DNA of 64,000 nt from an uncultured Eubacteriales bacterium (GCA_959602365.1 CAUGSS010000004.1:21811-85810); one strand, 5' to 3'; shown: positions 7,594-43,556, counted from the first letter of the stretch. Notes: a model not told the origin generated them from the sequence alone. Numbers and translations are program-made.

Positions 7594-7608
7594 ACCAATT
7601 CTCCTCTC

Positions 7609-14372: not shown

Positions 14373-15803
14373 TTATCTCAGGAATTCTCTTTGCTCGTGC
14401 TGCCGACGCAGTGCTGCCCGCACCTGTTCATTGCCCACGCCCTCCACTTTTTCCGCCACCGCCTGGTATTGATCTGCAATGCTGTCGCACAGGCGGATCT
14501 CCTTGCAGAGCTGGCGGCACTGCTGAGAGATAACACTGATCTGCTCCCGGTTGGCCTGATAGGCCTCCGGGTCTCCGCGGACGGAGGCCAAACGCTGCCG
14601 ACGGTTCAGTTCCTTCCGTCGGTCTTTTAAAGCGGCCAGCTGTATCTCGACAGCGGCCCGATAGTCCCGCAGTTCCGCCAAGGTGCCGATCTGGTGCCGG
14701 CACAACAGCCGGGCCTGCTCGGAAATCTGCCGCAGCCGCGTCAGGTCTTGTTTTAATGCCGGGCTGACCCGAGTGCTGGGCCGCTTCCGCCTGGCCGGGA
14801 GAATCCCCAGCAGGAAGCAGTAGCGGATATAGAGGGCCTGGAGTCCGTAGAGTCTCTGTTTGCCCCGTTTCCAAGGACGGAACGGGCCGCCCCGGTAGTG
14901 CATGCGGCGGGGCTTTCTCTTCAGGGGTTTCACCTGCCACTGCTCCGCGATCCTGCGCCGGATGGCCGCCCGGGTATAGTTCGCGCCGAAGTTGCGCTCC
15001 AGCCGGAGGAACCGCTGGGCTTCCGGCGCGCGCACGGACAGGTCCTTGCCCTGTTTGATCTCATAGCCCTTGGAGCGCAGGATCGTGAGGAAATGGCTGT
15101 CCGTCCTGGCCTGGCGGATGGCCGCATCCACGTCGGCCTGGACAATCTTCCGCCAGGACATCCGGCCCGGGGTGTAGTCTCGGACTTTGGACGGTTGGGG
15201 CTGGGCGATGGTGCGAAAGCCGTACTGGAGCGCCAGCTCGTCTGACACCCGCCGGAACTCGGCGTAGTCACTGGCGCTGCGGTAATACTTTTTCCCATCC
15301 ACGAAAGAGACTGTGCATACCACAAAATGATTATGGATATGGTTGGGGTGATCCACATGGGTGGCCACCAGCACTTGATACCGGTCCCCCCAGAGTTTCT
15401 GGGCCGTCTCCACGCCGATCCGGTGGATCAGGTCGGGCGGCCCCTCCCCCTGGGCGAAGGACTGGTAGCCGTGGTAGGCCGCGGTGCCGCCGGTCTTCTG
15501 GAACCTGCGCTTCGTCCAGCGCATCTCCTCCACCGCCGTGTCAGGATCGCAGTTGATCCCGGAGACCAGCTGGTGGACGATCCCGCTGCCGTCCTTCCAG
15601 GTGGTGGCGCTGTCCCGGGCGGCGTAGTCCGCCACGGCGTGCAGGTCGTAGACAGAGAACTCGCCCTCGGTGCCGCCCTGCTGCTCCATGGTCTCTGAGA
15701 CCGTCTTTTGATCCTGGGCGTACCGGGTCTTTTGGGCGTTGCCGGCGTAGCGCACCACCGCCGCCACATCCCCCTTTACCCGCCACAGGCTGGTTACTGG
15801 CAT
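14373..15803 (-). CDS. MobA/VirD2-type relaxase (relaxase/mobilization nuclease domain)
   Basis: His-triad motif HVDHPNHIHNHFVV and a long coiled-coil C-terminus. The start is taken at Met99 of the track ORF (MPVTSLW), preceded by the RBS AAAGGGAGGA. The upstream extension overlapping the AAA gene is rejected. Confidence 0.8.
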   Translation of the reverse strand: MPVTSLWRVKGDVAAVVRYAGNAQKTRYAQDQKTVSETMEQQGGTEGEFSVYDLHAVADYAARDSATTWKDGSGIVHQLVSGINCDPDTAVEEMRWTKRRFQKTGGTAAYHGYQSFAQGEGPPDLIHRIGVETAQKLWGDRYQVLVATHVDHPNHIHNHFVVCTVSFVDGKKYYRSASDYAEFRRVSDELALQYGFRTIAQPQPSKVRDYTPGRMSWRKIVQADVDAAIRQARTDSHFLTILRSKGYEIKQGKDLSVRAPEAQRFLRLERNFGANYTRAAIRRRIAEQWQVKPLKRKPRRMHYRGGPFRPWKRGKQRLYGLQALYIRYCFLLGILPARRKRPSTRVSPALKQDLTRLRQISEQARLLCRHQIGTLAELRDYRAAVEIQLAALKDRRKELNRRQRLASVRGDPEAYQANREQISVISQQCRQLCKEIRLCDSIADQYQAVAEKVEGVGNEQVRAALRRQHEQREFLR

Positions 15804-15820
15804 AGTAGGATCCTCCCTTT

Positions 15821-15857
15821 GCAAGAAAAAGCAGAGCGGTTTGAACCACTCTGCTTT
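15821..15857 (-). terminator. rho-independent terminator after AAA copy 2
   Basis: 9-bp stem aaagcagag/ctctgcttt with a 12-nt loop, then a U-rich tract on the minus strand. It is followed by the relaxase RBS. Confidence 0.5.
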
Positions 15858-15897
15858 CGATTGACAATTCAGTTGGTGTGAGAGAATATCAGCGCAT

Positions 15898-17190
15898 TCA
15901 CAGAAGCTCTTTCGTTTTCCGGGCCAGATAGAGCGGAAGATTGGTAATATCTCCATCCTTCCGATAGCCCCGCTTTGAAAACCGCAGCGCGTGCTCAGGA
16001 TGGTGCGCGGCGATATACCGCTTAAAGGACGGCGCCGACTTGTTTTCTCCGCCCTTGGCTTCCACAGGGATGATCTCCATCCCGTTTTGCAGCACAAAGT
16101 CTATTTCCATCTGCTTATCTGAATAATAGCGCGGCGCAACTTCAAACTGTCCCAGCAGCTGCTGCAGAACGAAGTTTTCCGTCAGAGGGCCTTTGAATTG
16201 AAAGTCGGCTTTCAACAATATCGCGCTGTTATCCACGCCGGCCATATGCTTCAGCAGACCTGTATCAAACAGGAGTAACTTGAACTGATCCAGCTTGTCA
16301 AAGGCCGCCAGAGGATGCTCCATTTTAGAGACGTTGTAGACCCGGTTCAGCATTCCGGCGGAGACCAGCCACTCGATCGCCTCTTCAAAATCTCTGGCCC
16401 TGCCCCCTTCCCGGACTGCTCCGTACATAAATTTTTCATTCGGCTTGGCGAGCTGTGAGACAATGCTGCGAAATACCATCAGGATGCGCCCGCTGTTCAC
16501 CTTGCCGTTGTGCTTGGAAAAGTCATTCTCATAGACTTCCACCAGCTCTTGCTGAATCTGAGAAATCTTCGCCGGATCCTTGTGCTTGATCCAGGATGCG
16601 ACGCACTCGGGCATGCCGCCGATGATGAGATAGTAGTCATAGGCCTCCAGCAGCCGCTTGTGAAAAATCTCCTCTATTGGCTGCTGCTTCTGAATCTCCT
16701 CGTAGTACAGGTAGAGGGAGGGATCAATGGCCTCCAAAAATTCGTCAAAGGTCAGCGGTGTGATCTCCAGCAGGTTGACCATTCCCACGGGGTAGGACTT
16801 CGGCTGTGCCAGCAGGGTACCCAGCAGGCTGCCGGCCGAAATAACATGATACTCATTGGCCCTCTCTTTGAAATATTTCAGGGCGTTCAACGCCTCCGGG
16901 CACTCCTGGATCTCATCAAAAATGATCAGGGTCTTGCCCGGAAGAATTTTTTGGCCGGAGATCAGCGAAAGCAATTCGATGATCCGATGGGGATTTTTAT
17001 TCGCCTGGAAAATCGAATTCAGCTCGTCCTCTTCGTCGAAGTTGAAATAGGCATAGCTGTCATAGAAATTCTGCCCGAACTCCTTCATGAGCCAGGTCTT
17101 CCCGACCTGCCGGGCGCCCTTCAGCACCATGGGCTTGCGATCCTCGCTGTTCTTCCAGGCAATCAGGTCCTGTATTGCGTTACGCTTCAT
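15898..17190 (-). CDS. AAA+ ATPase with DUF4143, copy 2
   Basis: 430-aa ORF with P-loop GARQVGKTW and Walker B IIFDEIQ. Its GC content is lower than the flanks, and it sits between mobC and the relaxase. Confidence 0.75.
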   Translation of the reverse strand: MKRNAIQDLIAWKNSEDRKPMVLKGARQVGKTWLMKEFGQNFYDSYAYFNFDEEDELNSIFQANKNPHRIIELLSLISGQKILPGKTLIIFDEIQECPEALNALKYFKERANEYHVISAGSLLGTLLAQPKSYPVGMVNLLEITPLTFDEFLEAIDPSLYLYYEEIQKQQPIEEIFHKRLLEAYDYYLIIGGMPECVASWIKHKDPAKISQIQQELVEVYENDFSKHNGKVNSGRILMVFRSIVSQLAKPNEKFMYGAVREGGRARDFEEAIEWLVSAGMLNRVYNVSKMEHPLAAFDKLDQFKLLLFDTGLLKHMAGVDNSAILLKADFQFKGPLTENFVLQQLLGQFEVAPRYYSDKQMEIDFVLQNGMEIIPVEAKGGENKSAPSFKRYIAAHHPEHALRFSKRGYRKDGDITNLPLYLARKTKELL

Positions 17191-18883: not shown

Positions 18884-20221
18884 TTATCGCTCCCTCGCTT
18901 TTGGCGTGGGGCCGCGCTGCCCGTCCGCTGTCCCCGCCCTGGCCCGCTGCCGGGCCACCGCAATCCGTTCCCCCATCGTCCGGGGCGGATAGGGCAGCTG
19001 GTAGTGCTCCTTGATGTCCCGGATCAGCGCCATGCACTGCCTTTCTGGCACGCTCCGCAGCTTGTCCATCACCCCCTGCGCCGTCTGCCGCTGTTCCGGG
19101 CTCTGGTTGTATTGGGCCGTCCAATCCAACCAGTCAAACACATCTGCTTTGCTCTTTCCAAACGAACGAAACAGGCACTGCTTTTCCTCTTCGATCAGCG
19201 CGATGGAACTTTCCTCCATCCCCGGACCAGGAGATACCGTAAGGACAGCATCCAGCCTCTGTTCATACTCCTGCTGTGGCATCAACGCGGCGCACATCTC
19301 CATATAGTCGGCGGCACCCTGGGCGTCCTTGATGGCATGGATCAGCAGATTGGGCTGATCCCGGATGCCCTGAATCCAGCCCTGTACATACGCCTTGTGG
19401 TTGTCGATGTGCTGTTGGGACATCTCCGTGGAAAGGGAAACGCCCATGAAGCAGGAGGCCATCTCAGCCACCAATTCTTCATAGGCGTATGTGTCGCTCC
19501 CAAAGCCGCCGCTCTGGTTTCGGTTCAGCCGGCTAGGATGCCCCGTGGCGTGGGCCAGCTCGTGGAGCGCTGTCGCATTATAGGCATACTCACTTTCAAA
19601 GGCCGACGGCTCCGGCAGGTGGATTTCATCTTGTTTGGGCCGGTAGAATGCCTGATCCCCGCCATGGATAATGGGCACACCCATGTTCCTGGACAGACTG
19701 CTCACCAACACATCGGCCTCAATGGTTGTCTCCGGCTGCTGCGGCTGTTCCAGCGCTGGGACTCCCTCCACCAGGCTGGCATTGAAAACCGGTGTGTAGC
19801 GGGTGGAAAGGCGGAATTCGTTCTGATCTCTACCCTCTGTAGAGAGTGCTTTCCGGTATTCCTCCCAGGTCACAGCCTTCTGGTTGACTGTATCATAGGG
19901 ATACCAGTATTCCACCCAGACCGCCTTGGAGCCGGCCTGGAGGTGCCACTTCTGCCCCGGATGGTACTTTCCCTTTTTGTCCATGATCTGCACCATGGTC
20001 ATCCAGCGGGGATCGTGATACCCGTTGACCAAGGCCACCAGCGACAGGTAAAACGAATTGCTGCCCCGGTATTTGGCCCCGGTGACAATGTTGTAGGGGG
20101 CTCCATTCCGGCCCGACTGGGTCCACTCCTGGCGCCACTCCAAGCCCTTTTCCTCCAGCACATGGGCGAACATATCCGCCAGCTGCTGCCGGTACTCCTC
20201 TTTATTTTTCGGTTTGCTCAC
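18884..20221 (-). CDS. ardC: ArdC-like antirestriction protein with C-terminal zincin metalloprotease domain
   Basis: 445-aa ORF with an ArdC-N ssDNA-binding N-terminus and the HExxH motif LHELAHATGH. It uses a GTG start. Confidence 0.75.
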   Translation of the reverse strand: MSKPKNKEEYRQQLADMFAHVLEEKGLEWRQEWTQSGRNGAPYNIVTGAKYRGSNSFYLSLVALVNGYHDPRWMTMVQIMDKKGKYHPGQKWHLQAGSKAVWVEYWYPYDTVNQKAVTWEEYRKALSTEGRDQNEFRLSTRYTPVFNASLVEGVPALEQPQQPETTIEADVLVSSLSRNMGVPIIHGGDQAFYRPKQDEIHLPEPSAFESEYAYNATALHELAHATGHPSRLNRNQSGGFGSDTYAYEELVAEMASCFMGVSLSTEMSQQHIDNHKAYVQGWIQGIRDQPNLLIHAIKDAQGAADYMEMCAALMPQQEYEQRLDAVLTVSPGPGMEESSIALIEEEKQCLFRSFGKSKADVFDWLDWTAQYNQSPEQRQTAQGVMDKLRSVPERQCMALIRDIKEHYQLPYPPRTMGERIAVARQRARAGTADGQRGPTPKARER

Positions 20222-20972: not shown

Positions 20973-21144
20973 AGTATCACCTCCTTTCGGCGGTCTAAAA
21001 AGTGTTGATTTTATAATAAAAGGTGGCCTCTATGCCGCCCGGCTACCTCGGAGGGGAAAACCTATGGGCGTTGACCTTTCGACCGACTGTGGATGAAAAA
21101 CATGGAATTTTCGACTCCTTTTGGGTCAGTTTCGAGTATGAAAA

Positions 21145-21172
21145 CACACCATAGGGTTGAACCTATGGTGTG
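21145..21172. promoter_or_regulatory. 11-bp perfect inverted repeat (cacaccatagg N6 cctatggtgtg), operator-like
   Basis: It lies in the divergent intergenic region between the wHTH gene (20972) and the Cys-protein/dual-NTPase operon (21309). A half-site copy cctatggg is at 21061. Confidence 0.4.
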
Positions 21173-21308
21173 CAAGGATTGTGTTATAGACCATTTTTAT
21201 TTATGTTTTGCAATTGTTTTTTGCCTATTAATCAGCTATAATTTTCCTACAGACTAATTGTGACAATTTTTTCGTAGACTATCTCTTACATTTAAGGTGG
21301 AGTGTTCT

Positions 21309-21734
21309 ATGGCTCTTCGAGCGGATCAGCGAGATTATAAGAACGCATTTCAAAAGCATCTGCATGCCTATACTAACTGGAAGGCTACTGGTAGTAGTGC
21401 AAGTAAACGGCTTATTTTAGCATATTGCGTGGAATGTGGGCTAAAATATGTAATTATGAAACAAGAAAACATATTTCGAACATCCGAAGCCCAAGATGAT
21501 ATAGCAAAAGAACTAAGTTCACATGACTATCGTAAGTTGTTAAGGCGATTAAAGCAAGCCGGAATATATGAATTTCCCACGATAAAAACTAATCACTGCG
21601 AAAATGTCCACCCAGAAACTTATCATGAATTTTGCAGATATTGTATTAAGCCGGAAGATAAGTACGTAGGAACTATCCAACAATACGACAAGACATTTGA
21701 AGAAATTGTTGAATGGATTGAGGAGCACATATGA
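21309..21734 (+). CDS. small Cys-containing protein (two CxxC pairs, putative Zn-ribbon); partner of the downstream dual-NTPase gene
   Basis: Start at the ATG 6 nt after the RBS AAGGTGGAG; the GTG start in the track lies inside that RBS. It contains CVEC and CRYC. The region is AT-rich, and its stop overlaps the next start (ATGA). Confidence 0.5.
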   Translation: MALRADQRDYKNAFQKHLHAYTNWKATGSSASKRLILAYCVECGLKYVIMKQENIFRTSEAQDDIAKELSSHDYRKLLRRLKQAGIYEFPTIKTNHCENVHPETYHEFCRYCIKPEDKYVGTIQQYDKTFEEIVEWIEEHI

Positions 21735-24355
21735 AAATGAAGTTTTACACTTGGAAAGATATTGAACGATATTTTTTATTATACCGTGCTTCATGGGAAG
21801 ATACGATCGGCTCTATTGACGTATACCCTACTGATATAACAGTATATGCAAGACAAGGTACATGTGAAAAGGCATGGGAAACCATTCAAACGATGTTTGG
21901 TGCAAACTATAATCCTCAAAAAAAAGAAATCAAATTGGACATTGGAAATTATGCATTGCCTATCGATGTTCAAGAAAGCGAAAGTGTGCCAAAAGGCAAG
22001 AAAGTATTGCCTCTATTTGAAAATGTTCTGTATCAAACATCATCATATCCGACTCAAAAGCCTGAGCCATTAAGTCATCAAATAATCGCTTTTCATTCAT
22101 ACAAAGGCGGCGTGGGTAGAACATTGTCCCTTTTGGCGTTTGCTAAGGCTTGGTCAGCAGTTTTTGGTAATAGCGACACTAAAAGGCTCTTAATTATAGA
22201 TTCTGATATAGAAGCTCCAGGCATGACTTGGCTTCAAGAAAATCGTTCCGATGACACATTTAGCTATTTAGATTTGTTAGCACTGATTCAAGATAAAAAA
22301 GATGTTGATGAAATAGTTGATTTAGCTTGTTCAAAGTTGAAATTGTCTACGATAACTGTTGAAACAACTTCTCGAAAGATTGAGCATGTGTTTATTCCCA
22401 CTTATCGTTATGAGGAACAGCTAATTGATCTATACGCAACGCCGGAGAGCATTGTAAATAGTAAGGGAAAAGAATATATTCTTGCTACAGTTATATCTAA
22501 AATCTGTGAGCGTTTGGGTTTATGTGCTGCTTTAGTCGATTTGCGTGCAGGAATCAGTGAATACTCGTCTACGCTTTTGTTAGATTCTCGTGTTAAAAAG
22601 TACTTGGTAACATCTACTTCAACACAATCAATTCTCGGTACTCAAATGCTTTTAAAGTATTTGTTAAAGGGACTTAATATAGGAGAATATACTGTACTGC
22701 CTGAAATTTTCCTGAATATGATTCCAGATGCACTGTCAGAAAATGATAAAAGTGATATAATTGGAGAATTGCTTCAGTGCTATGAGCAAGGGGGGGGCGT
22801 AGACTCCGATCTGCAGCTTACTGATAATGTTATTACTGAATTGCCTTTTGCAAGTGAACTAATCCATCTAACCTCTATGCATCAGATCTTCCAGAACTTA
22901 AATGGGAGAGGACTTTATCTTAATCTTGAGGAGTTGATAAAACAGAATTATATCGATGAAAAGCCTCTTGATGAAAGTAGTATCAAGGAAGAAAGCCGAG
23001 ATACTATTCTAAAAAAAATAAATGAATTGGCCTCTTCCCAGTTAACTGCAGAGGGAAATGCAGATTTTGATGTTCTCATGACAGAAGCTCTAAAGTATCT
23101 TTCCAGAAAATATAATGATTCAGTCCCAGCAACTGTTGTAATGGGGGCTAAAGGATCAGGAAAGACCTTTTTGTATCGGAAGATGAGTGAATCTAGAGAG
23201 TGGACAGCCTTTTGTAAAAGCATAGGTGAGCCTGTAAACGATACTGCTACTGGGTTCTTTCTGCCGGTTATTGCTTCAAGAAATTCCACTCAATTTATGA
23301 AGACATTAAAATCGTGTATTAATAATTTAAACAATCACATTTCTGGCTGTAGCGTAAGCGAAAGTATATTTTGGGATAATTCCACAAAATTAGAGCGCGA
23401 AAAAAATCAGACTACGGATTGGCTCTATTTTTGGGAATTATTGCTTGTAAAATCTATATACCCTCAGTACTCTAGTTTACAAGAAGTCAACAGTGAACTG
23501 GAAGCCAAAAAGAAAAAAGTGATTTTTTTGATTGATGGGCTTGAAGATATATTTGCACATATTTCCGCTGACGAAAACGAGCAAACTGCAGTAAAGGCTT
23601 TGTGCCAAGACATTGTTGCACAATTGATAGCTAAATACTCCAACATTGGAATAATTGTATTTTTGCGGCGTGATATGGCACAATCATCTATTACAGTTAA
23701 CTTTAAACAGTTTATGCAAGCCAATGGACAGGCAGAGTTAAAATGGTCGTCAAGCGATGCACTAAGACTTGTAGTTTGGCTTGTTTCAAAAGCTGTGCCT
23801 CGATTCTACGAAGATGTAGAAGAGATAGAACAAGCATCTCAAAAAGTCATTGATGATGCCCTTGTACGTTTGTGGGGAACTAAACTCGGAAAATCTTCAT
23901 CTAATGAAGCATATTCATCTAGGTGGATTTTAGCAGCATTATCTGATTTTAACGGGCAGTTGCAAGCAAGAGATATTATTCGATTTTTACAACATGCGAC
24001 AGCATCTCCAAAGAAAGCAATTTATAATGATCGCATTATTATGCCAACAGAAATCAGGGAGGCAGTTTCTACTTGCTCAACGGAAAAAATTGAAGAGGTA
24101 AAGCAGGAATATGCGACGCTTAAGCCGATTTTTGAAAGACTTCAAGATTTACCAGAGGAGCATAGAACTCTCCCGCTATTGCCTGAGTATGCAAAACTAA
24201 CTAGTGACGAGGAACGATATATGATCCGAGAGGGATATTTAAAAAGGGAAGGAGATAAGTTTTATCTGCCGGAAATCATTCGCCACGCACTGAGATTCAA
24301 ATATGGGAAAGGAGCTCGTCCAAAAGTTTTAGCACTCACATTAAAGAAATCATAA
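21731..24355 (+). CDS. 874-aa multidomain NTPase: unknown N-terminal domain + KGGVGR-variant ParA/MinD-like ATPase + NACHT-like STAND NTPase + helical C-terminus
   Basis: Deviant Walker A SYKGGVGRT at nt 22103..22120 and a ParA-like Walker B LLIIDSD. A second P-loop, GAKGSGKT, lies at nt 23144..23167, with a NACHT-type Walker B VIFLIDGLED at 23519..23545. The coding sequence is about 38% GC. Confidence 0.65.
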   Translation: MKMKFYTWKDIERYFLLYRASWEDTIGSIDVYPTDITVYARQGTCEKAWETIQTMFGANYNPQKKEIKLDIGNYALPIDVQESESVPKGKKVLPLFENVLYQTSSYPTQKPEPLSHQIIAFHSYKGGVGRTLSLLAFAKAWSAVFGNSDTKRLLIIDSDIEAPGMTWLQENRSDDTFSYLDLLALIQDKKDVDEIVDLACSKLKLSTITVETTSRKIEHVFIPTYRYEEQLIDLYATPESIVNSKGKEYILATVISKICERLGLCAALVDLRAGISEYSSTLLLDSRVKKYLVTSTSTQSILGTQMLLKYLLKGLNIGEYTVLPEIFLNMIPDALSENDKSDIIGELLQCYEQGGGVDSDLQLTDNVITELPFASELIHLTSMHQIFQNLNGRGLYLNLEELIKQNYIDEKPLDESSIKEESRDTILKKINELASSQLTAEGNADFDVLMTEALKYLSRKYNDSVPATVVMGAKGSGKTFLYRKMSESREWTAFCKSIGEPVNDTATGFFLPVIASRNSTQFMKTLKSCINNLNNHISGCSVSESIFWDNSTKLEREKNQTTDWLYFWELLLVKSIYPQYSSLQEVNSELEAKKKKVIFLIDGLEDIFAHISADENEQTAVKALCQDIVAQLIAKYSNIGIIVFLRRDMAQSSITVNFKQFMQANGQAELKWSSSDALRLVVWLVSKAVPRFYEDVEEIEQASQKVIDDALVRLWGTKLGKSSSNEAYSSRWILAALSDFNGQLQARDIIRFLQHATASPKKAIYNDRIIMPTEIREAVSTCSTEKIEEVKQEYATLKPIFERLQDLPEEHRTLPLLPEYAKLTSDEERYMIREGYLKREGDKFYLPEIIRHALRFKYGKGARPKVLALTLKKS

Positions 24356-24437
24356 TCATTCGGACTATAGATAGCATAATAAAATTTTGTGATGGAGCGC
24401 CATAGCTATAGCTTTTATGCTTATGGCGCTCCACTAT

Positions 24438-24656
24438 TTATTCACTTTCCTCGTCCAGCCCCTCCGCCCTCAGCCAGTCCTCAAAGGACTTTCTGGAGAT
24501 GCGGATCATATTGCCGATGCGGATCGTCTTGAACAATCCGAAGTTGGCGAGTTTATAGGCCGAGGCGCGGCCGATACCGAGAATGGCTGCGATGTCATTC
24601 ACGGTGTATGTCCTGCTTTGGGGCGTCCCTTTTTCGTTGGTCGTGTCAGTGCTCAT
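24438..24656 (-). CDS. excisionase-family / MerR-like HTH DNA-binding protein
   Basis: 72-aa ORF (YTVNDIAAILGIGRASAYKLANFGLFKTIRIGNMIRISRKSFEDWL) matching the Xis-type HTH pattern. Confidence 0.55.
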   Translation of the reverse strand: MSTDTTNEKGTPQSRTYTVNDIAAILGIGRASAYKLANFGLFKTIRIGNMIRISRKSFEDWLRAEGLDEESE

Positions 24657-25169: not shown

Positions 25170-26618
25170 TTATTCCATACCACGGTAGCCGTGCTTTTCT
25201 GCATGGCCAAGCAGATAAAGAAACGCGAAGGCCGGGATACGGATCAAATCTTTGCCGCTTTTCGTATTGTGGACGCCAAAGTCATCGGCAGTTTTGGTCA
25301 CCACGATGGAGGCTGCGGCTTCTCCGCTCAACTCTACGATCGCAGAATCATCCGGGATAGGGGCGCCCTCCCGGTATTTCACTTCGATGAGGATGTTCTT
25401 GGAATTGGCATATTCCACCACAACATCGACTTCTTTTCCTCGTTTGCCGCCGCGATAATATCCTACCGACGCAGCCTGCTGATAATAAAATGCAGCTACA
25501 TGCTTGTAAACTGCGGTTTCCACCACCTTCCCCATCTCGACCGGATCGCTCAGCATAGAGTCGTCCATTAAAACCGCATTGCGGATCGCCGCATCAGCAA
25601 TATAGATTTTAGGACTCGCTTTCAGGACCTTTTTTCCCCCCATATTGACGGGCCAGCTCTGATAAATTAAGTTAGCACTTTCCAGATATTCAATATAATT
25701 TTCTACGGTAGGTCTGGAAACACCATTCAGTTCCTTCGCAATCGCTTCGATAGAGACGATCTCAGAAGAAACATTGCACAGATAAAGAAAGATTCGCTCC
25801 AACTCTGTCGCATTGCGGATCTTATAAAGGGAGGGCAGATCCCGCTTGAGTACTTTGTCTACCACATCTTCCCGCATAATCTGCTGGGCCAGAATGTCGT
25901 TATCAGCCAGAGCCAGTTCGGGAAACCCGCCCACTTGCAGATAGCGGTTAAAGTGATTCTGCACCTTGGAGAGCTGCAGCATGATCTGGGTGCGTTCCTG
26001 CTGGGTCTTATATACCAGCGGTGTGATCTTTAAATTGTCCGGCAGGTCGGGACGATCCACATTCAGCAGTTCACAGTACTCATAGAAGGACAGCGTGGGA
26101 ACCTGGATCGCCGACCATCGACCAGCGCCGCTCTCCTGGCTCCCTTTGATCAAAACCGGACTGGCCGAGCCGGTAGCCACCATTTTGGTGTCCGGCTGCA
26201 TATCGTAGATCGTCTTCAGCCATTTGTCCCAATCCTGCGCATACTGGATCTCGTCAAAAAAGTAGTAGACATCCTGCTCCGGATAGATATTTTCGTGATA
26301 GCACTCCAGAATCTCATTCATGGCGCTTAACTTCAGCATGGGATGATCCATGGAAATAAAGACGATCTTCTGAGGCGGCACGCCGTTTTGGAGCAGAGCC
26401 TCGATCATCTGGTACTGTATGGTGGTCTTTCCAACTCGTCTGGTTCCTGTTAAAACCACTGTGCGCCGGATGTCGGTCTGATTCAGGCGCTTCATGGCCT
26501 CGTAATAGGCAAAGCGCTTATAAGTTTTGGACAGTTTGGGGTTTACGACTCCGGTTTTCCACCAGGGGTTGTAGGAAACCAGTACTTTCAGCAATCCTTC
26601 CTTGCTGATGATGGCCAT
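25170..26618 (-). CDS. AAA+ ATPase with DUF4143, copy 3
   Basis: 482-aa ORF with P-loop GTRRVGKTT and Walker B YFFDEIQ. It lies in the low-GC island and is followed by a hairpin at 25119..25155. Confidence 0.75.
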   Translation of the reverse strand: MAIISKEGLLKVLVSYNPWWKTGVVNPKLSKTYKRFAYYEAMKRLNQTDIRRTVVLTGTRRVGKTTIQYQMIEALLQNGVPPQKIVFISMDHPMLKLSAMNEILECYHENIYPEQDVYYFFDEIQYAQDWDKWLKTIYDMQPDTKMVATGSASPVLIKGSQESGAGRWSAIQVPTLSFYEYCELLNVDRPDLPDNLKITPLVYKTQQERTQIMLQLSKVQNHFNRYLQVGGFPELALADNDILAQQIMREDVVDKVLKRDLPSLYKIRNATELERIFLYLCNVSSEIVSIEAIAKELNGVSRPTVENYIEYLESANLIYQSWPVNMGGKKVLKASPKIYIADAAIRNAVLMDDSMLSDPVEMGKVVETAVYKHVAAFYYQQAASVGYYRGGKRGKEVDVVVEYANSKNILIEVKYREGAPIPDDSAIVELSGEAAASIVVTKTADDFGVHNTKSGKDLIRIPAFAFLYLLGHAEKHGYRGME

Positions 26619-26761: not shown

Positions 26762-28156
26762 TTACCACCGGTGTCTCTTGTGCTGAGGCCCTTTACTCTC
26801 TTGATTCTTTTCGTGTTCCCGCTTGCCCAGAAGCTCGTCCTCTTTTGCGATCGTAGGGTCGTACCAGTCTGCTTTTGCTCGAGCCCAAGACGCCCATGCA
26901 GAAAGGTCCTGCTCTGCATGGGCTTTTTCCATGGCAGAAACATAGGAACGGATTCTGCACGCAATATCATAGTCGGATGCGCAGTTGACAAGGGCCAGCG
27001 TTCGATCAACTTCTGCATTATACCGTTGACGCTGCTCCTCCCGCTTTCTTTCCTGCTCCTGGCGCTGCCGCTCTGCCTCCTCCCGGGCCAGGCGTGCTTG
27101 CTTCACCTGCTCCGCCTCACCATAGATGGAGAGCATCATATCTCCCAAACGGTCTTCCAGGACATAGGATCGGCAATCCCGAAATGTTTTTGCGCCATTG
27201 ACACATAGACTCAAGCGGCCATTGTAAACGGAATCATATTTACGAATTTGTGGCTTTGTTGCCCAAGAGTATTTTTTGCGCTTTTCTTCATATTCTAATA
27301 GTTTGAGATTTTCTTCTTTTGTTGGGGTATGTAGAATCTGGTCAGTCGACTCAGAAAATGTGAGCGTGACTGTATCTTGTTCCCTTGCAAATTGCAGATC
27401 ATTCGTCAAACGCCATCCCAGAGGTATCATAGCTTTGGCCAGCGCATCGATCAATCGAAAGATCCTCGGTTGCTGCTCTTCTGAAACCCCTTCGGCGAAT
27501 GGAGGCGGAACTTCCCGCCTCCCGCGATTCCAGTTTGCGCCGAATTTCCGCTCCTGCTGGCGCTTCCTCTTGTTCCATTCTGCGATCCGTTTTCGGTGCG
27601 CCACGATTTCCGGCCGCATACGGGCGTGTTCCTGCGGCAGCAAGATCTGTGCCGCCACATTCAGCACCACTTGCCGCTCTTCTTCAGGCAGAAATTCCAG
27701 AGAAGCCATGTCCTTGGCGGGATTGGCCCGGCGGCTGATCCCGGTTTGTATCCCCAGTTTTGTCTGTTCTTTTCCGGGCGGGAAGGATGTATCCACTGGA
27801 GAAGATACACTGGAAGGCTCGGAGGCAGTTTCCTCTTGGAGGGGGAGAACTTGCTCTGTTTTCTTTGCATCTGCAGTACTGGGCAATGTCTCCTGTAGCA
27901 GTTCAACGACGGCATCCCCATCCCCAGAGAGAGGCGTCTGTTCCACGGATTTTCCGAAGTTGAGTTTGGTCCAATATCCAGAGGGAGGGACAGGGATTTG
28001 GGCCGCCTTGATTTCTGCCAGACATTTGGCATATGGGATACCATATTTTCTGGATACACCTGCCACAGATATTTTCCAAATCTCTTCATAAAGTTCCTTT
28101 CGCGTCAGACGAACCGTAGCGGACGACATCACTGTTCTCACCTCCCGTTTATCCAA
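26762..28156 (-). CDS. hypothetical protein (464 aa) with a charged coiled-coil segment
   Basis: Intact ORF. The N-terminus is HTH-like (LTRKELYEEIWKISVAGVSRKYGIPYAKCLAEIKAAQIPVP), and there is a strongly charged coiled-coil (REEAERQRQEQERKREEQRQRYNAEVDRT). No family assigned. Confidence 0.4.
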   Translation of the reverse strand: MDKREVRTVMSSATVRLTRKELYEEIWKISVAGVSRKYGIPYAKCLAEIKAAQIPVPPSGYWTKLNFGKSVEQTPLSGDGDAVVELLQETLPSTADAKKTEQVLPLQEETASEPSSVSSPVDTSFPPGKEQTKLGIQTGISRRANPAKDMASLEFLPEEERQVVLNVAAQILLPQEHARMRPEIVAHRKRIAEWNKRKRQQERKFGANWNRGRREVPPPFAEGVSEEQQPRIFRLIDALAKAMIPLGWRLTNDLQFAREQDTVTLTFSESTDQILHTPTKEENLKLLEYEEKRKKYSWATKPQIRKYDSVYNGRLSLCVNGAKTFRDCRSYVLEDRLGDMMLSIYGEAEQVKQARLAREEAERQRQEQERKREEQRQRYNAEVDRTLALVNCASDYDIACRIRSYVSAMEKAHAEQDLSAWASWARAKADWYDPTIAKEDELLGKREHEKNQESKGPQHKRHRW

Positions 28157-28787: not shown

Positions 28788-31700
28788 TTACTGCTCGGAA
28801 CTGCTCCCTTTGCGGTGCTCCTTGCACGCCAACAAGACGGCCATACAACCACAGGCGGCCAACAGGATAGCAACACAGATCAGGATCGGAGCGGCATCCC
28901 CGGTCTCGGGTGCGGCCGGCGGAACTATAATTTCCACTGTCTGACCCTCATCGTTCCAGTCTTGATGCACCGCCACAGGCTGGACTTCCACATCCTCGCC
29001 CTGGTATAGCGCCTCAAATACCACCAGCTGGTGCCCGGCCAGGCTGCTGGCATCGAAGGTGAAGGAGACCTCCACGCTACCCTCCGCGGCTTCCGCCACA
29101 AAGGCAGTCACAGTGGTGATGGGCTGCCCCTGGGCGTCGGTCACCGCCAGGCCGGTCGTCTTGTCCATCAGAGTACCCACCAGCGTATAGGTCTGACCTG
29201 CCCGGAGATTGGTGTAGGTCACGGTGTCCAGGATAGTCACGCTGGAACCAGCGGTGGCCCTGTGGGTGCCGCTGGCCTGATCCACCGCGTTGGTGTGGAT
29301 GCCGGGGAAACTCACGCTCTGATCTGCATCATTTATATCCGCATGGGTGCCGACTTCGATGCCCTTGTAACGCAGGGACTCAAATGCTACTACAGTTTCA
29401 CCAGCCAGCAGGGAACCATCAAAGCTGAAGGTCAGCGTCACGCTGCCCTCGCTCTTTTCAGTGGTGAAGGTAGTGGAGGCAGCCACAGGATTGCCCTGGG
29501 CATCCACCAACAGCTCGCCGGTGGACCGGACGTACAGGACGCCATTGACCGTGTACTGCTCTCCCACGATCAGGTTGGAGTAGAACACCTTGTCCAGGAT
29601 AGTGACCGTCTCATCCGCAATGGAGGTGTGGTCACCGGACTCAGCGTCAATGGCGGTGGTGGCAATTTCAGGAATGTGCACCGTCTGATCCGGGTCGGCA
29701 AGGTCGGTGTGGGTGGCATACACGGTATCGTGCATGCTTAGAAACTCATAGATCACCAGCGTTTTGCCCCCGTGAATGGATCCGTCGAACACAAAGGTGT
29801 TGTCTACGGTGCCATCCGCCGTATCTGCCCGGAAGGAAGTTGTGGCGGTAATGGGATTGCCGTTGGCGTCATACACCGGCAGCCCTGTGTCAGCATCCAT
29901 CAAGGTACCAGTGAGCTGATAATTTCGCCCGGGCTGGAGATTAGTATAGGACACGGCATCCACAATGGTGACCGGGTTCTGGGCATATGCAACATGATCG
30001 CCGGTTTCCACATTGCTGGCATGAGTGTCAATGGCAGGGAAGTGCACCGTCTGCTCCTGGTCCGCCAAATCGGCGTGAACAAGAACCGGTTCATCGCTCA
30101 TTTCCTCACCATGGCCCGTATACAAGGTCTGACAGATGACCACAGACTGGCCTGCCAAGGCGCTGCCGTCCAGTACGAACTCCATGCGCAGGGAACCGCT
30201 GCGGGAGGTGGGCGTGAACTCCCGGGTAACAGAGATGGGGTTGCCCTCGGCATCCGTCAGCACCGCGCCGGTGGCCTGATCGACCAGGGTGCCCACCAAG
30301 GTGTAGTCAGTATTGGCCTGCAGGTTTTCATAGCGCACAGTGTCAATGACCACGGTACCGCTTTCAGCAGGTCCCCACCGAGAGTTGGTGGACTCCAACA
30401 CAGCGCTGGTACTCATGCGCATCTGGAAATTCTCAATGTTATTGAAGTCCACAGTATAGCCGTCTCTGGAGATTGTCAGAGTACCAGTCCACAGGATATA
30501 ATCCTCATTTGCCTCACATGGCTGCTCCTCCAGGGTGTAAGTGCCGTAGGGCAGGGCACCGACAGAATCATCGGGTTCACCAGCGCCGAACCAAAGGCCA
30601 CTGCCCACCGTACCGCCGTTGGTGTCCTGGGTGTGGGGAATCCAGGAGGCGGCGGAGCTGTAATAGCCGTTTTCATCGGTCACAAAGTAGTGGGTCTCGC
30701 CGGTGGCGTCATTGGTGATTTGAAAGGGCACGCCTGCCAGAGCAGTCTGTGTATCCCCGTCCACCTTGCGCAGCTCGAAATCGCCTCGGATGATGCGGTT
30801 GGAGATGGAGTGGTCAAAGTCGGCCAGATCCACCACCACGCCGTCTTCCACGATGTCAAACGCCTGGGAGGTAATGCCGTCAGAGGTGTAACCGGAGGGC
30901 GGGACGGCCTCCCGCACCTCATAGTGGCCGTAGGGGAGTAAATCAGCGGCAGTCTCAAACAGGCCGTTCTCATCGGTATACCCGGTATAGATCACCTGGC
31001 CATCGGTATAGGTGATGCCATTGACCACCACGTTACCTCCGGTGCGGTTGACGATCTCAAACTTCGCACCAGCCACAGTAGCCTCGCCCTGGCCCACATG
31101 TTCCTGGCTCTCAATGTCATACTTGTACAGCTTGACTCCGCCACGAATGACCTCATTAGAGATGGCGTGCTCGAAGTCAGTCAGATCCACAATCACACCA
31201 TTTTGCTCAATGGAGAAAATCTGAGAAGTGGTGCCGTCTCCGGTGTAGCCGGTGGGAGGGGTGACCTCGCGTACTTCATAGGTGCCGTATGGGAGCAGAT
31301 CTGCTGCCGTTTGGAACAGGCCGCTGTCGTCTGTCTTGGCGGCGTACACAACCTCGCCAGAAGCATAGCTCACACCATTGACCAGCACCGCATTGGCGCT
31401 GCGGTTGATAATCTCAAATACAGCACCCTGGACAGTTGCACCGCCCTGGGGCGTATGCGACTCCGTCTCAACGTCGTACTTGTACAGCTTGACGCCGCCC
31501 CGGATGACCTCGTTGGAAATGGAGTTTTCAGGGGCGGTTAGATCCACGATGACGCCGTGCTCGGAGATGTCAAATACCCGGGAGATGGTGCCGCCAATGG
31601 TGTAGCCTGTGGGCGGGGTCTGCTCCCGCAGCTCATAATGGCCTGCGGACAGCAGGTCGGAAGTGGTCTGGAACAGGCCGGAGGCATCTGTGCCGCCGGT

Positions 31701-33569
31701 ATAGACCACTGCGCCGTCGGCATAGCTGCCGCCATTGACGGAGATGGTCCGGCCCGTGCGGTTGACAATTTCAAACTGGGCGCTGGCCAGCGTGGCGCCG
31801 CCCTGGGGGGTGTTGGCGCCGGTCTCAGCGTCGCGCTTGCAGATCTTCACGCCGCCCCGGATCTCCGTGTCCTGCTTGGTGTAGGCGTTGCCGCCCCGCA
31901 GATAGCCGGTGCCGCCCGCCCCGTCCTGGGTGACGTTCAGCAGCACCACGCCATTGCTGTCGGAGACGGTCTGTCCGGTGGCATCATTGATATAGCTGCC
32001 CTCCAGGGTGTAGCCCTCCGGGGGCTTGGTCTCCTGGACGGTGACCGTGCCCAGCGGAAGCACCACTGAAGTGCCGGAGGGGTTGTGATAAAAATCGTCG
32101 CCGGAAACCTTGTAGTTGTCTGCGAGGATGGCCAAATACATCCCCGTGGCCTGATTGTATTTGGTCTCCACCACCCAGGTCCGGGTGGGCACGGCGGGCA
32201 GCTGTTCCACAGCGCTGTACTGTCCGTCATAGTAACACACGGTGAACTGGGCCCCTGCCAGTGAGGGGACGTCCCCGTCGGAATCAGCGGCAATCTTGGT
32301 CAGAGTGAGGCCCACCGGGTCGTTGGCGGGCTCCTCCGTCACCGTGACGCTGACCTGGGTGGTGTCCGCCGTCACGGGGTACACCGTGGCGTCCAGCTGA
32401 TAGCCCGGGCTGGCCGTGATCTCCTTCAGCCAGTAGCTGCCCTGTTCCAGCTCCCCGGTCGCGCCCTCCCCGTTGGCGCCGGTGGTGATGGTGGTCACCA
32501 GCTGGGTGCAGCCGGCGTCGGAGTAGACGCCGTAGACCGCCCCCTCCAGGGAGTAACAGCCGTTGCCGCCGGTGATGCCCGGGTTGGCGGAGCGTTTGAC
32601 CAGGCGAATTTGGGTGTACTCCACCGGCGGCTTCTCGTTGGTGGGGATCAGCATGACCTGATATCCGGATTCGCCGGTTTCATAGAGGCCATACAGGGAG
32701 TCAGAGCCCTGGTCCGCGATGGAGACCAGATATTGAGCCGCCGCCAGGGCCTCCTCCGTCCCGGCGCGCCCGGTGGTGCGCAGGTCGTCAATGGAGATGT
32801 CGCCGCTCTTGTTATAGGGGGACACACACCAGAGTGCTGCCTGGGTGGCCTGCCGGGCCTGATTGGCATCCAGCGCCACGCCTCCGATGGTGGTCTGGTT
32901 GGGATAGCCCGCATCCAGTATGGCGGCGGCCCGCTCATCAGCATACCCCAGGAACGTATACACCTGTGATTCACTCGGGGTGGCGCGCCCCTGGGCAAAA
33001 CAGTAGGCTGTATTCCCGTTCTGATCGGTGTGGATCGTCCCGGCGTTGACCCCCAGGCCGCCCTTGTCGGTGATCAGATTGGTGCCCGTGATCCGGGTGG
33101 TGGTAAAGGTGAAGGTGTCCCCGGCTCCCAGGGTGGAGACGCCGGGGCCCTCCAGGGAGACCAGCATCCGGGGCAGGTCCTCCCACCGGTAGCCCTCCGC
33201 CAGCGTGCAGCCCTCGGTCAGCGTCAACACAAAGGTCAGCAGGGAGACGCCGGCGGGGTCTGTCTCATAGGCCCGTTGATCCGCCGGGTCGCAGCTCCAG
33301 GTGATGGGGATCCTGGTCACAGTCCCGTCCGTCAGCGTCACCTGGGCCTCGGTGGGCAGCAGCCCAATCATGTCCTGGACTGTGGTGCCTCTCTCCCCGT
33401 AGACCACGCCTCTCTCCATGACATCATAGGAAATGTCGGCCACTTGTACACTGTCCGCAGATGCCGCCCCGATGTCCGATGCCTGGGCGGCGCCGGGAAG
33501 GGCCAGGCTGGCGCAGAGTGCCAGAGACAGGAGCAGGGATATGGCCCGTTTCAATTGGATGGACTTCAA
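28788..33569 (-). CDS. cell-wall-anchored thioester-forming adhesin with Cna-B/SpaA-type and VaFE repeats
   Basis: 1593-aa ORF with a signal peptide and a TQxA motif (ARQATQAALW). About 130-aa units recur (GGVKLYKYD...REVTPPTGYT), as do VaFE-like repeats (HTDLADPDQTVHIPEIAT...). The C-terminus is APETG + hydrophobic stretch + KEHRK, a sortase sorting signal. Start codon is TTG. Confidence 0.8.
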   Translation of the reverse strand: MKSIQLKRAISLLLSLALCASLALPGAAQASDIGAASADSVQVADISYDVMERGVVYGERGTTVQDMIGLLPTEAQVTLTDGTVTRIPITWSCDPADQRAYETDPAGVSLLTFVLTLTEGCTLAEGYRWEDLPRMLVSLEGPGVSTLGAGDTFTFTTTRITGTNLITDKGGLGVNAGTIHTDQNGNTAYCFAQGRATPSESQVYTFLGYADERAAAILDAGYPNQTTIGGVALDANQARQATQAALWCVSPYNKSGDISIDDLRTTGRAGTEEALAAAQYLVSIADQGSDSLYGLYETGESGYQVMLIPTNEKPPVEYTQIRLVKRSANPGITGGNGCYSLEGAVYGVYSDAGCTQLVTTITTGANGEGATGELEQGSYWLKEITASPGYQLDATVYPVTADTTQVSVTVTEEPANDPVGLTLTKIAADSDGDVPSLAGAQFTVCYYDGQYSAVEQLPAVPTRTWVVETKYNQATGMYLAILADNYKVSGDDFYHNPSGTSVVLPLGTVTVQETKPPEGYTLEGSYINDATGQTVSDSNGVVLLNVTQDGAGGTGYLRGGNAYTKQDTEIRGGVKICKRDAETGANTPQGGATLASAQFEIVNRTGRTISVNGGSYADGAVVYTGGTDASGLFQTTSDLLSAGHYELREQTPPTGYTIGGTISRVFDISEHGVIVDLTAPENSISNEVIRGGVKLYKYDVETESHTPQGGATVQGAVFEIINRSANAVLVNGVSYASGEVVYAAKTDDSGLFQTAADLLPYGTYEVREVTPPTGYTGDGTTSQIFSIEQNGVIVDLTDFEHAISNEVIRGGVKLYKYDIESQEHVGQGEATVAGAKFEIVNRTGGNVVVNGITYTDGQVIYTGYTDENGLFETAADLLPYGHYEVREAVPPSGYTSDGITSQAFDIVEDGVVVDLADFDHSISNRIIRGDFELRKVDGDTQTALAGVPFQITNDATGETHYFVTDENGYYSSAASWIPHTQDTNGGTVGSGLWFGAGEPDDSVGALPYGTYTLEEQPCEANEDYILWTGTLTISRDGYTVDFNNIENFQMRMSTSAVLESTNSRWGPAESGTVVIDTVRYENLQANTDYTLVGTLVDQATGAVLTDAEGNPISVTREFTPTSRSGSLRMEFVLDGSALAGQSVVICQTLYTGHGEEMSDEPVLVHADLADQEQTVHFPAIDTHASNVETGDHVAYAQNPVTIVDAVSYTNLQPGRNYQLTGTLMDADTGLPVYDANGNPITATTSFRADTADGTVDNTFVFDGSIHGGKTLVIYEFLSMHDTVYATHTDLADPDQTVHIPEIATTAIDAESGDHTSIADETVTILDKVFYSNLIVGEQYTVNGVLYVRSTGELLVDAQGNPVAASTTFTTEKSEGSVTLTFSFDGSLLAGETVVAFESLRYKGIEVGTHADINDADQSVSFPGIHTNAVDQASGTHRATAGSSVTILDTVTYTNLRAGQTYTLVGTLMDKTTGLAVTDAQGQPITTVTAFVAEAAEGSVEVSFTFDASSLAGHQLVVFEALYQGEDVEVQPVAVHQDWNDEGQTVEIIVPPAAPETGDAAPILICVAILLAACGCMAVLLACKEHRKGSSSEQ

Positions 33570-33707: not shown

Positions 33708-34442
33708 TTACTGGGTGGCTCCGCAGGCGCAGCGGCAGCCAGTCACCACCTGTTCCTCCCAGGCCGCCGCATCCACGACCCAGACCTGCTCTGTCACAGG
33801 GTCGTGATGGATTGTACCTGTCTGCACCCTCTGATTGCTGTAGGAGGCCATGCCTTGGTGCTCCAACAGGATATGGACGCTGACCTCCTCCTCGGATACA
33901 AAGGATGCCCCGCAGGCGCCGCAGATGTTTCGGTACTCATAGACCGGCTCGTCGCAGGCTTCCGCCACGGTGCGGGTCTCGTAGTGGCCCACCTCGTCGT
34001 GGTACACCGTGGCATAGACCGGCTGCCAGTCGTGGGTGTGCCCGTCCTGCTCGTCCATGTCGCCGGCGTCCGCCGCGCTGGGCTGTTCCGTTTCCGGTGC
34101 CGCCCCATTGGCGCCGCCGGCGCTTCCGCCGTCCTGGTCCGCCCCGGCAGGTTCCGGCCGCCCGGTTTCGGCGGAGAAGCTCGCCTCCCGCTTGTCCGTC
34201 TCTGCCAAGCTCACGTCCTGACTGTCCTCCGGTGCCGGGGGCTCCACAGCCCCGGTTTCATCTGACGTCTGAATCGTCTCTCCTTGGTCCGCGGTCTCCA
34301 CAGCCTGCTCCAGGACGGGCCGCGCCAGCCCTGGGGCGCTCTCCGCCGCGGCCTTGCCCACGGCTCTGGCCCCGCAGCCCGCCAGCAGGCCCAGACAGAT
34401 CCCTCCGGCCAGCACTGCCGTCCAAACTCTGCTCCGCCTCAT
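33708..34442 (-). CDS. lipoprotein with acidic central region and Cys-rich C-terminus
   Basis: Signal peptide with lipobox LLAGC. The C-terminus has CGACG and CRCACG pairs. A strong terminator follows. Confidence 0.5.
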   Translation of the reverse strand: MRRSRVWTAVLAGGICLGLLAGCGARAVGKAAAESAPGLARPVLEQAVETADQGETIQTSDETGAVEPPAPEDSQDVSLAETDKREASFSAETGRPEPAGADQDGGSAGGANGAAPETEQPSAADAGDMDEQDGHTHDWQPVYATVYHDEVGHYETRTVAEACDEPVYEYRNICGACGASFVSEEEVSVHILLEHQGMASYSNQRVQTGTIHHDPVTEQVWVVDAAAWEEQVVTGCRCACGATQ

Positions 34443-43379: not shown

Positions 43380-43556
43380 ACTGTAACCCTCACCTTTCTA
43401 GTTTCATTTGTATGCTGTCAACCGGGGATATAGCATGGTTCGATTATACTAAATATTTTTACGCCCTACAAGCCGAAGCGGCGAAAAAAGGCGAATTTTC
43501 CGCCCTCATAGCTGCGGTTGCCCCGGCATAGTCTGATGAAAAAAGGGGGGCTTGCC

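Follow-up and report, generated by a model that had tools for sequence, protein, structure and literature searches.

A 64,000-nt stretch of DNA from an uncultured Eubacteriales bacterium (GCA_959602365.1, CAUGSS010000004.1:21811-85810), referred to here as the window, carries a two-gene cassette among the genes of an integrative and conjugative element (ICE). Gene 1 encodes a small protein and gene 2 a large, multi-module NTPase; judged by their sequences, the two would together form a divergent, fused-type member of the PDC-M28 family, which PADLOC-DB lists as a candidate defense system with genes A, B, and C. The stop of gene 1 and the start of gene 2 overlap as ATGA. Because the ribosome-binding site (RBS) of gene 1, AAGGTGGAG at 21294-21302, is spaced 6 nt from the start at 21309, an alternative GTG start at 21297 falls within it. 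An RBS-like GAGGAG stands 5 nt ahead of the gene 2 start, and the two genes are translationally coupled. The features of the cassette and its surroundings are collected in Table 1.

The limits of the cassette were set by comparison with other loci (labeled L). DNA homology with L033, L034, L035, and L006, which have unrelated contexts, begins at 21213-21217, and homology to other contexts stops at about 24361. As homology is confined to this interval (~21213 to ~24361), a cassette of 3.15 kb is defined. GC content is 0.34-0.39 over 21000-24250 and 0.48-0.63 in the flanks. A repeat search returned no convincing direct or inverted repeats flanking the cassette, Rfam gave zero matches over the entire window, and consensus scans for promoters and terminators were uninformative, with no confident promoter call in the leader. 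The strong hairpin beyond gene 2 is probably a bidirectional terminator and is part of the ICE backbone, outside the cassette; the RNA fold of the stretch around it (24356-24445) has an energy of -29.4 kcal/mol (z -5.3). A second, perfect hairpin, CACACCATAGG-TTGAA-CCTATGGTGTG, is intergenic at 21143-21171, just 5' of the left border. A first-pass annotation, made from the sequence alone, had described two co-directional, ATGA-overlapping genes at these positions, in an AT-rich segment inside a GC-richer conjugative element, and had read them as a cargo operon; all of this stands, the pair being taken as a co-transcribed and co-inherited cargo cassette. The four motifs that it cited (SYKGGVGRT at aa 123-131, LLIIDSD at aa 153-159, GAKGSGKT at aa 472-479, and VIFLIDGLED at aa 597-606) are likewise all present.

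Table 1. Features of the two-gene cassette and of the surrounding conjugative element, in window coordinates.
Feature	Position	Strand	Remarks
5' leader of the cassette	21213-21308	+	Conserved; presumed promoter region, RBS included; from DNA homology and sequence reading
Gene 1, small ORF, 141 aa	21309-21734	+	PDC-M28A-like, predicted divergent HEPN-domain protein
HEPN motif 1, YCVECGLK, aa 39-46	21423-21446	+	From cross-phyla family alignment
HEPN motif 2, H72-D73	21522-21527	+	H invariant; D or N
HEPN motif 3, R110-Y111	21636-21641	+	Invariant
Gene 2, large ORF, 874 aa	21731-24355	+	Three modules; predicted equivalent of PDC-M28B and PDC-M28C, fused
N-terminal alpha/beta domain, aa 1-95	21731-22015	+	pLDDT 82-91
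KGGVGR-variant ParA/MinD-fold NTPase module, aa 117-311	22079-22663	+	
Deviant Walker A KGGVGRT, aa 125-131	22103-22123	+	Arg for P-loop Lys
A'/switch I motif LLIIDSDIEAPG, aa 153-164	22187-22222	+	
Walker B/switch II of ParA-like module AALVDLRAGISE, aa 266-277	22526-22561	+	
Helical linker, aa 312-455	22664-23095	+	Low confidence at aa 354-366 and 410-420
Sll1717-family P-loop ATPase module, aa 456-810	23096-24160	+	ORC/Cdc6-BrxC-STAND type
Walker A of module 2, GAKGSGKT, aa 472-479	23144-23167	+	
Walker B of module 2, VIFLIDGLED, aa 597-606	23519-23548	+	
C-terminal small alpha/beta tail, aa 811-874	24161-24352	+	
Strong hairpin GGAGCGCCATA...TATGGCGCTCC	24394-24432	.	Between gene 2 and a convergent HTH_17 (excisionase-type) gene
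Lysozyme/M23 protein	2608-4845		
VirB4-like ATPase	4851-7274		
Coupling protein (T4CP)	8832-10667		
Relaxase	14373-16097		
ArdC	18884-20221		
TQ-ester/thioester adhesin	28788-33569		
Canonical ParA and ParB of the ICE	35102-36809		ParA: AAA_31, 186 bits

The AlphaFold2 (AF2) model of the large protein has a predicted local distance difference test (pLDDT) score of 79.5 and resolves five parts. The N-terminal domain has no Pfam match, and its residues W8, D10, and R13 are invariant in relatives of at least 49% identity. It is followed by a module with the SIMIBI ParA/MinD fold, which scores 128.6 bits over aa 117-311 against a cutoff of 90 with the NCBIfam model NF047398, "KGGVGR-motif variant AAA ATPase"; the KGGVGR ParA-like module proposed in the first reading is thus borne out. 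Conservation was assessed on 133 full-length sequences, with identity down to ~28%. In the deviant Walker A, K125 is kept in 133/133, R130 in 132/133, and T131 in 131/133, while the A' motif has D157, D159, E161, A162, P163, and G164 in every sequence. LLIIDSD, previously taken as the Walker B of this module, is actually this A' motif (ParA/MinD switch I), and the Walker B proper of the module is AALVDLRAG, with D270 and G274 in 133/133 and R272 in 132/133. The linker that follows (aa 312-455) is poorly ordered in the model and has the lowest conservation of the protein. In the second P-loop module, G472 (132/133), K474 (130/133), G477 and K478 (both 133/133), and T479 (131/133) form the Walker A; D602 (132/133), G603 (133/133), and E605 (129/133) belong to the Walker B, with R646 and D648 near-invariant downstream. 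P815 and G835 of the tail are at least 97% conserved. Both nucleotide sites are thus at least 97% conserved across the set and are under strong selection, the Arg variant being selected rather than decayed; the strict conservation of KGGVGR argues for a working, not a dead, nucleotide site.

With the NCBIfam model NF047389, "P-loop ATPase, Sll1717 family" (cutoff 75), the second module scores 80.5 bits, and the match is strongest over aa 581-810. Pfam scores remain below threshold for nSTAND1 (22.4 vs. 27.1), NACHT (20.7 vs. 26.7), and, for the large protein as well, AAA_31 (20.5 vs. 27). The best structural matches of the second module are BrxC, Cdc6/ORC, and RdrA, with nucleotide-binding leucine-rich repeat receptors (NLRs) outside the top matches; by Foldseek, BrxC reaches 2.8e-4, and RPP1, ORC, and CED-4 only ~1e-3. 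A relative from Nostoc passes just over the Pfam ORC-CDC6-like cutoff (27.3 vs. 27). On account of these structural matches and the Nostoc score, we place the module in the ORC/Cdc6-BrxC-STAND assemblage. The earlier description was of a NACHT-like STAND NTPase; a second P-loop module, of the STAND/ORC type, is supported, and the NACHT likeness is not. Past the Walker B there are only ~270 residues, helical and then small alpha/beta; neither Pfam families nor the AF2 model gave C-terminal TPR, WD40, or LRR sensor repeats or a fused effector, and Pfam and NCBIfam gave no recognizable effector-type domain anywhere in the large protein. A sequence search of the PDB with the large protein returned zero matches, an exact look-up of this protein and of protein P0001 found nothing on record, and PHROGs gave only a weak ParA-like match. 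Within the phage collection there is a sole, partial match, in Microcystis phage Mic1 (MN013189.1, 8141-8761): this gene is annotated "ParA family protein" and matches aa 447-661 of the large protein, and so falls on the second (Sll1717/ORC-like) P-loop module, not on the ParA-like one.

The small protein is all-helical in its AF2 model (pLDDT 77.8), with the up-down four-helix fold of HEPN domains. Only Y39, E42, L45, K46, H72, R110, and Y111 are invariant across phyla in its family. Aligned by hhalign with 30 PF05168-positive HEPNs, the Clostridial family of the window's protein gave 89% probability (E 2.3e-6) over 101 columns, with its motifs in register: YCVECGLK with YAVECALK, sHD..LL with THDL..LL, and CRY with SRY. 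With PF05168 itself (cutoff 22), the Nostoc family member scores 22.1 bits over profile positions 8-114 of 117; the protein of L029, a cross-matching HEPN of a different, ATPase-less dyad, scores 25.2. We regard the gene 1 product as a small, divergent, predicted classical HEPN-domain protein. The first-pass annotation had instead called it a CxxC...CxxC mini-protein. CVEC and CRYC are both present and C40, C43, and C109 are kept among close relatives, yet C40 and C43 are replaced in Ralstonia and Nostoc and C109 varies across phyla, while C97 and C112 are variable already among close relatives; a zinc-finger reading was therefore set aside. A PDB sequence search with the family gave chance-level matches only.

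Both proteins were compared with PADLOC-DB. The window's large protein matches PDC-M28B (PDLC04559) at E 9.8e-11 over aa 95-317 and PDC-M28C (PDLC04561) at E 1.9e-16 over aa 466-807, and the large proteins of Ralstonia and of L026 match both models too. In the fused pair on the Nostoc plasmid all three models are matched (A 2.4e-10, B 2.3e-41, and C 3.6e-27). The small protein of L012, a family relative in the corresponding position, matches PDC-M28A at 6.4e-4, and the Nostoc small protein is itself recovered at 1.4e-5 by a hidden Markov model of the window's small-protein family. The cassette would thus be a divergent PDC-M28 family member of the fused type, and we hold the family and domain assignments with high confidence. 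These matches, together with the NCBIfam models for both ATPase modules, overturn the initial view that no described system combines such parts, and there are published precedents for partial combinations, namely HEPN + ParA/Soj dyads (Anantharaman et al., 2013, PMC3710099) and variant MinD/ParA domains fused to STAND proteins (Kaur et al., 2020, PMC7159879). A small ORF of L029 (Acidobacteria) was considered as a bridge to PDC-M28, with an A match of 1e-10, but its partner is an overlapping gene of 123-145 aa and not an ATPase. About 480 L029 relatives are paired in the same way, and such matches therefore show only that PDC-M28A is a HEPN model. These genes (L029 7938-8336; L037-L042 ~6001-6830) encode HEPNs of 136-138 aa in Acidobacteria, Planctomycetes, and related groups, match PDC-M28A at ~1e-10, and have a partner without a Pfam match; they appear to be a separate HEPN dyad that is cross-detected by the A model.

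The family is large. At least 699 homologues of the large protein were found, of which the best 120 are almost all full length (one is a 492-aa fragment). An exhaustive search of 50%-identity representatives gave 895 at E<=1e-3 and 324 at E<=1e-30, and the top 150 are nearly all full-length matches of 850-950 aa, down to 28% identity. The fused form of ~870 aa is hence a large, old family, and these numbers, with the conservation of the nucleotide sites, mark the genes as real and not chance open frames. No true split B/C form was found in the family sampled. Two candidates for such a form were rejected: L024 (469 + 393 aa) is a frameshift, with the break just after the second Walker A at a poly-A run, and P0224 (422 aa, L036) is a truncated remnant with nothing downstream. 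A 987-aa protein with a C-terminal nucleotidyltransferase (P0063), considered as a link to HEPN-MNT pairs, is a stop-loss read-through into a neighboring MNT-HEPN pair (L043 4256-7389); the next ORF there starts like a PF05168 HEPN (AQQIAEKMLKS).

The pairing of the two genes was surveyed at all 27 loci with a recognizable small-gene homologue. In 25 of them, the frameshifted L024 copy included, the large gene starts where the small gene ends or overlaps with it; the two exceptions are L007, at a contig end, and L029, where the HEPN has a different partner. Approached from the other side, all intact large-gene loci reached via the large protein (L001-L005, L031-L035, and L043) have the small gene upstream. 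The pair is obligate and co-inherited, and the anticipated conservation of the small gene beside the large one extends over Bacillota, Ralstonia, and Nostoc. In a Ralstonia pseudosolanacearum megaplasmid (NZ_CP069246.1, L030 6193-10535) an IS5-like transposase ORF at 6725-7681 splits the pair, with the HEPN gene (6193-6681) on one side and the large gene on the other; this insertion may inactivate or deregulate the pair.

Hosts include Lachnospiraceae, Oscillospiraceae, Ruminococcaceae, and Selenomonas, as well as Ralstonia megaplasmids and a Nostoc plasmid. The cassette also occurs in a related conjugative element (L032) at 91% nucleotide identity, at a chromosomal site flanked by BipA and an HTH/MatE region (L033, L034), and in a capsule locus (L001-L003). 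Found in two conjugative elements, at chromosomal sites, and on plasmids, it is a self-contained and horizontally mobile unit. At the capsule locus, on a Clostridial chromosome (L001 3239-10604; also L002 and L003), the neighbors are capsule/exopolysaccharide genes encoding Wzz, a BY-kinase-type ParA ATPase, and LytR-Cps2A, and in L001 the cassette is directly preceded by two ORFs without annotation (258 and 287 aa).

Defense genes are often found near the pair. An hsdR gene adjoins the Nostoc pair, the L036 remnant has an Eco57I-type methyltransferase in its vicinity, and an AAA_15/21 ATPase with DUF3226 is present in L043. At 24 loci the two closest ORFs on either side (87 ORFs in all) were scanned with PADLOC, and the neighbors matched include AriA/AbiLi-type ATPases (3), AbiLii, MADS components, type I and type IV restriction enzymes, SspH, and PbeA, along with the candidate models PDC-S03, PDC-S33, PDC-M16A, and PDC-M12A. 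This proximity is no more than suggestive of a conflict role.

In the window, the surroundings of the cassette are conjugative-element genes (Table 1). There are also three paralogous genes for AAA_14 + DUF4143 ATPases, all on the minus strand (11505-12782, 15898-17190, and 25170-26618); one of them adjoins the cassette, each is set in sequence less GC-rich than the backbone, and they look like recurrent cargo insertions of a single gene type. Four further minus-strand ORFs have no Pfam match at E<=1e-5, namely 7609-8442 (277 aa), 26762-28156 (464 aa), 33708-34442 (244 aa), and 43466-45283 (605 aa), at least three of them among ICE genes. L032 has a Pfam-less ORF of 488 aa at a position comparable to that of the 464-aa ORF.

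What might such a pair do? The overall explanation that we favor is an NTPase-controlled HEPN conflict module, acting in abortive defense or in a toxin-antitoxin-like manner, and we would rate its chances of being right as about even. A conflict role of either kind, as the first-pass annotation had proposed, is still the best reading and in our judgment fairly probable. Coupled translation would give the two proteins in a fixed ratio, and they would form a complex in which the large protein may serve as a nucleotide-driven sensor or switch that holds its HEPN partner inactive. A phage- or plasmid-derived trigger could then alter the nucleotide state or the oligomerization of the ATPase modules, and HEPN dimers, freed or activated, would act on RNA by binding or cleavage and stop cell growth, as abortive defense or as dormancy. 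Carried as ICE cargo, the cassette might benefit the element and its host alike. The complex, the switch, the RNA targeting, and the phenotype are all inferred. That the HEPN is a catalytic, RNA-cleaving effector we would propose only tentatively and with some doubt.

Several results weigh against this explanation. The window's small protein has no Pfam HEPN match of its own, and its match to PDC-M28A is weak (E 0.0057, aa 7-67). In the cross-phyla alignment and in hhalign neither a His nor an Asp is conserved 4-6 residues past R110, so that the canonical Rx4-6H RNase motif is absent; because this histidine is absent, RNase activity of the HEPN is uncertain and a nucleotide- or RNA-binding subunit is possible. 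According to the HEPN census, several HEPN-T (PF05168) members have another residue in place of the histidine (Anantharaman et al., 2013, PMC3710099). Distinct defense-type neighbors are estimated at ~8-13 of the 87 ORFs, a count that has no background comparison, and some loci, such as the capsule locus L001-L003, are plainly outside defense islands. A pattern-limited scan of viral contigs, of limited sensitivity, returned no relatives. Literature searches on PDC-M28, on KGGVGR in this sense, and on Sll1717 found no paper and no experiment, and a search on HEPN with ParA-like and anti-phage found nothing relevant; in the lone study testing PDC candidates, M28 is not among them.

A bolder version of the conflict module would be a working immune or exclusion system of unstudied mechanism, in which an Arg-P-loop ParA-fold module and an ORC/BrxC-like ATPase, coupled in one chain, jointly detect foreign DNA or proteins and activate a HEPN without the canonical catalytic histidine. 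The ParA-fold module might, in this version, scan DNA or the nucleoid as ParA does. We consider a system of this kind unlikely, though of interest should it be real.

The leading alternative is a toxin-antitoxin or addiction module that stabilizes an ICE or plasmid, with the HEPN as toxin, the large ATPase as antitoxin, and no dedicated phage sensing. The presence of the cassette on two conjugative elements (in the window and L032), a Nostoc plasmid, and Ralstonia megaplasmids would suit such a role, as would the translational coupling of its genes, and classical HEPN proteins are the toxins of MNT-HEPN pairs; a HEPN + ParA/Soj dyad offers a precedent (PMC3710099). However, known antitoxins are much simpler than a three-module protein of 874 aa whose two nucleoside triphosphate (NTP) sites are both strictly conserved, some copies of the pair are chromosomal with no mobile-element genes close by, and the presumed toxin is a HEPN without the canonical catalytic His. 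Addiction as the main role of the pair seems to us unlikely, and it is compatible with abortive defense rather than exclusive of it.

The same missing His or Asp beyond the invariant R110 invites another possibility, that the HEPN is a non-catalytic nucleotide- or RNA-binding adaptor and that the effector resides in the large protein, for instance if the ParA-like module bound or occluded DNA, if the N-terminal domain were the active part, or if NTP were consumed. The HEPN domain of sacsin is nucleotide-binding, the N-terminal domain here is conserved and without an assigned family, and ParA-fold proteins bind DNA, with 5u1j among the top structural matches. Set against this, the large protein offers no recognizable effector-type domain, and the cross-phyla invariance of E42, K46, H72, R110, and Y111 fits an active or a ligand site, a pattern that leaves catalysis and binding undistinguished. 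We find it quite unlikely that the HEPN is only an adaptor.

Very unlikely, in our view, is a reading along the lines of the original proposal, an undescribed Avs/bNACHT-type STAND receptor fused to a partition-type ATPase, with the accompanying CxxC mini-protein taken as zinc-binding. The NACHT-like Walker B (hhhhDGLE[DE], with D602, G603, and E605 at least 97% conserved), the sub-threshold Pfam NACHT and nSTAND1 scores, faint precomputed matches in relatives, and the weak Foldseek matches to RPP1 and CED-4 all speak for it, but the Pfam thresholds are missed, BrxC, Cdc6/ORC, and RdrA are the best structures, there is no C-terminal repeat sensor or fused effector, the cysteines vary in what is predicted to be a HEPN protein, and the combination is already catalogued as PDC-M28. 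Finally, a role in ParA-type partitioning or positioning of the ICE or of cellular cargo, which residence on a conjugative element might suggest, is highly improbable, as the ICE has its own canonical ParA and ParB, the P-loop Lys of the KGGxxK[ST] signature is Arg in 132/133, the NCBIfam models ParA_partition (15.9 vs. a cutoff of 180) and VirC1 (16.4 vs. 313) are far from matched, and the cassette has no ParB-like partner or centromere repeat, its obligate partner being the HEPN gene.

The family is of interest for its breadth, with hundreds of 50%-identity clusters over Bacillota, Pseudomonadota, and Cyanobacteriota, and as a mobile unit already flagged as a defense candidate. The present analysis adds that the "A" component of PDC-M28 is predicted to be a HEPN domain without the canonical catalytic His and that the KGGVGR site is strictly selected, not decayed. 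It also clarifies how PDC-M28-type systems are built and supplies a compact unit of 3.15 kb that is ready for experiments. If the pair is confirmed as a functional system, a ParA-fold module would join the known immune sensors and switches. Should the bolder, unstudied mechanism prove true, it would mean a new sensor logic, and possibly new HEPN chemistry, spread among gut Clostridia by conjugative elements.

Among known systems, several share parts of this architecture. HEPN proteins of the MAE_18760 family form dyads with ParA/Soj-like ATPases that have been proposed as toxin-antitoxin systems in which the ATPase is the antitoxin (Anantharaman et al., 2013, PMC3710099). The operon of a HEPN gene with a ParA/Soj-fold ATPase gene, the ATPase being the proposed controller of the HEPN, is common to both, a comparison made by description; however, MAE_18760 is listed with Rx4-6H, whereas the HEPN of the cassette belongs to the PF05168 type and has no such motif, and the ATPase here has an added N-terminal domain and a second, ORC/STAND-like module. 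The type VII toxin-antitoxin pair HepT/MntA differs in that the cassette has no MNT partner and its HEPN has no catalytic His. BrxC of BREX, DUF499/HmaC-type proteins, and RdrA of RADAR are ORC/Cdc6-like defense ATPases, some with an N-terminal HEPN, and HEPN domains fused to BrxC-like DUF499 ATPases have been proposed as back-up suicide effectors (PMC12839542). Here, though, the HEPN is a separate gene, a ParA-like module is added, and the cassette has no methyltransferase, PglZ, helicase, or deaminase partner; the likeness is a structural one. With Avs/bNACHT proteins the cassette shares a P-loop NTPase with an hhhhDGLE[DE] Walker B and a conflict-system context, and differs in its sub-threshold NACHT and nSTAND1 scores, the absence of a repeat sensor and fused effector, and the place of NLRs outside its top structural matches.

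Variant MinD/ParA domains, predicted to be inactive, occur in NTP-dependent conflict systems, some of them fused to STAND AP-ATPases; their settings are vWA-MoxR/VMAP effectors and, for the AP-ATPase + MinD/ParA fusions, actinobacterial peptide-processing systems (Kaur et al., 2020, PMC7159879). As far as descriptions can be compared, both have a MinD/ParA fold with a non-canonical site that is fused to, or works with, a STAND-type ATPase. Our cassette differs in having no vWA-MoxR or FxSxx peptide system and a strictly conserved KGGVGR site, and the "inactive" label should not be assumed for the KGGVGR family. In PDC-M28, lastly, the B model corresponds to the N-terminal domain with the KGGVGR module, C to the Sll1717 module, and A, weakly in the window but clearly in Nostoc, to the small HEPN. 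The differences lie in the strong divergence of the window's small protein from the A model and in gene number, B and C being fused in the cassette and in nearly all of the family sampled, vs. three genes in PDC-M28 as catalogued. PADLOC may not call the window's locus because its PDC-M28 rule expects three genes, and since the dominant natural form fuses B and C, such a rule may miss PDC-M28 loci elsewhere as well.

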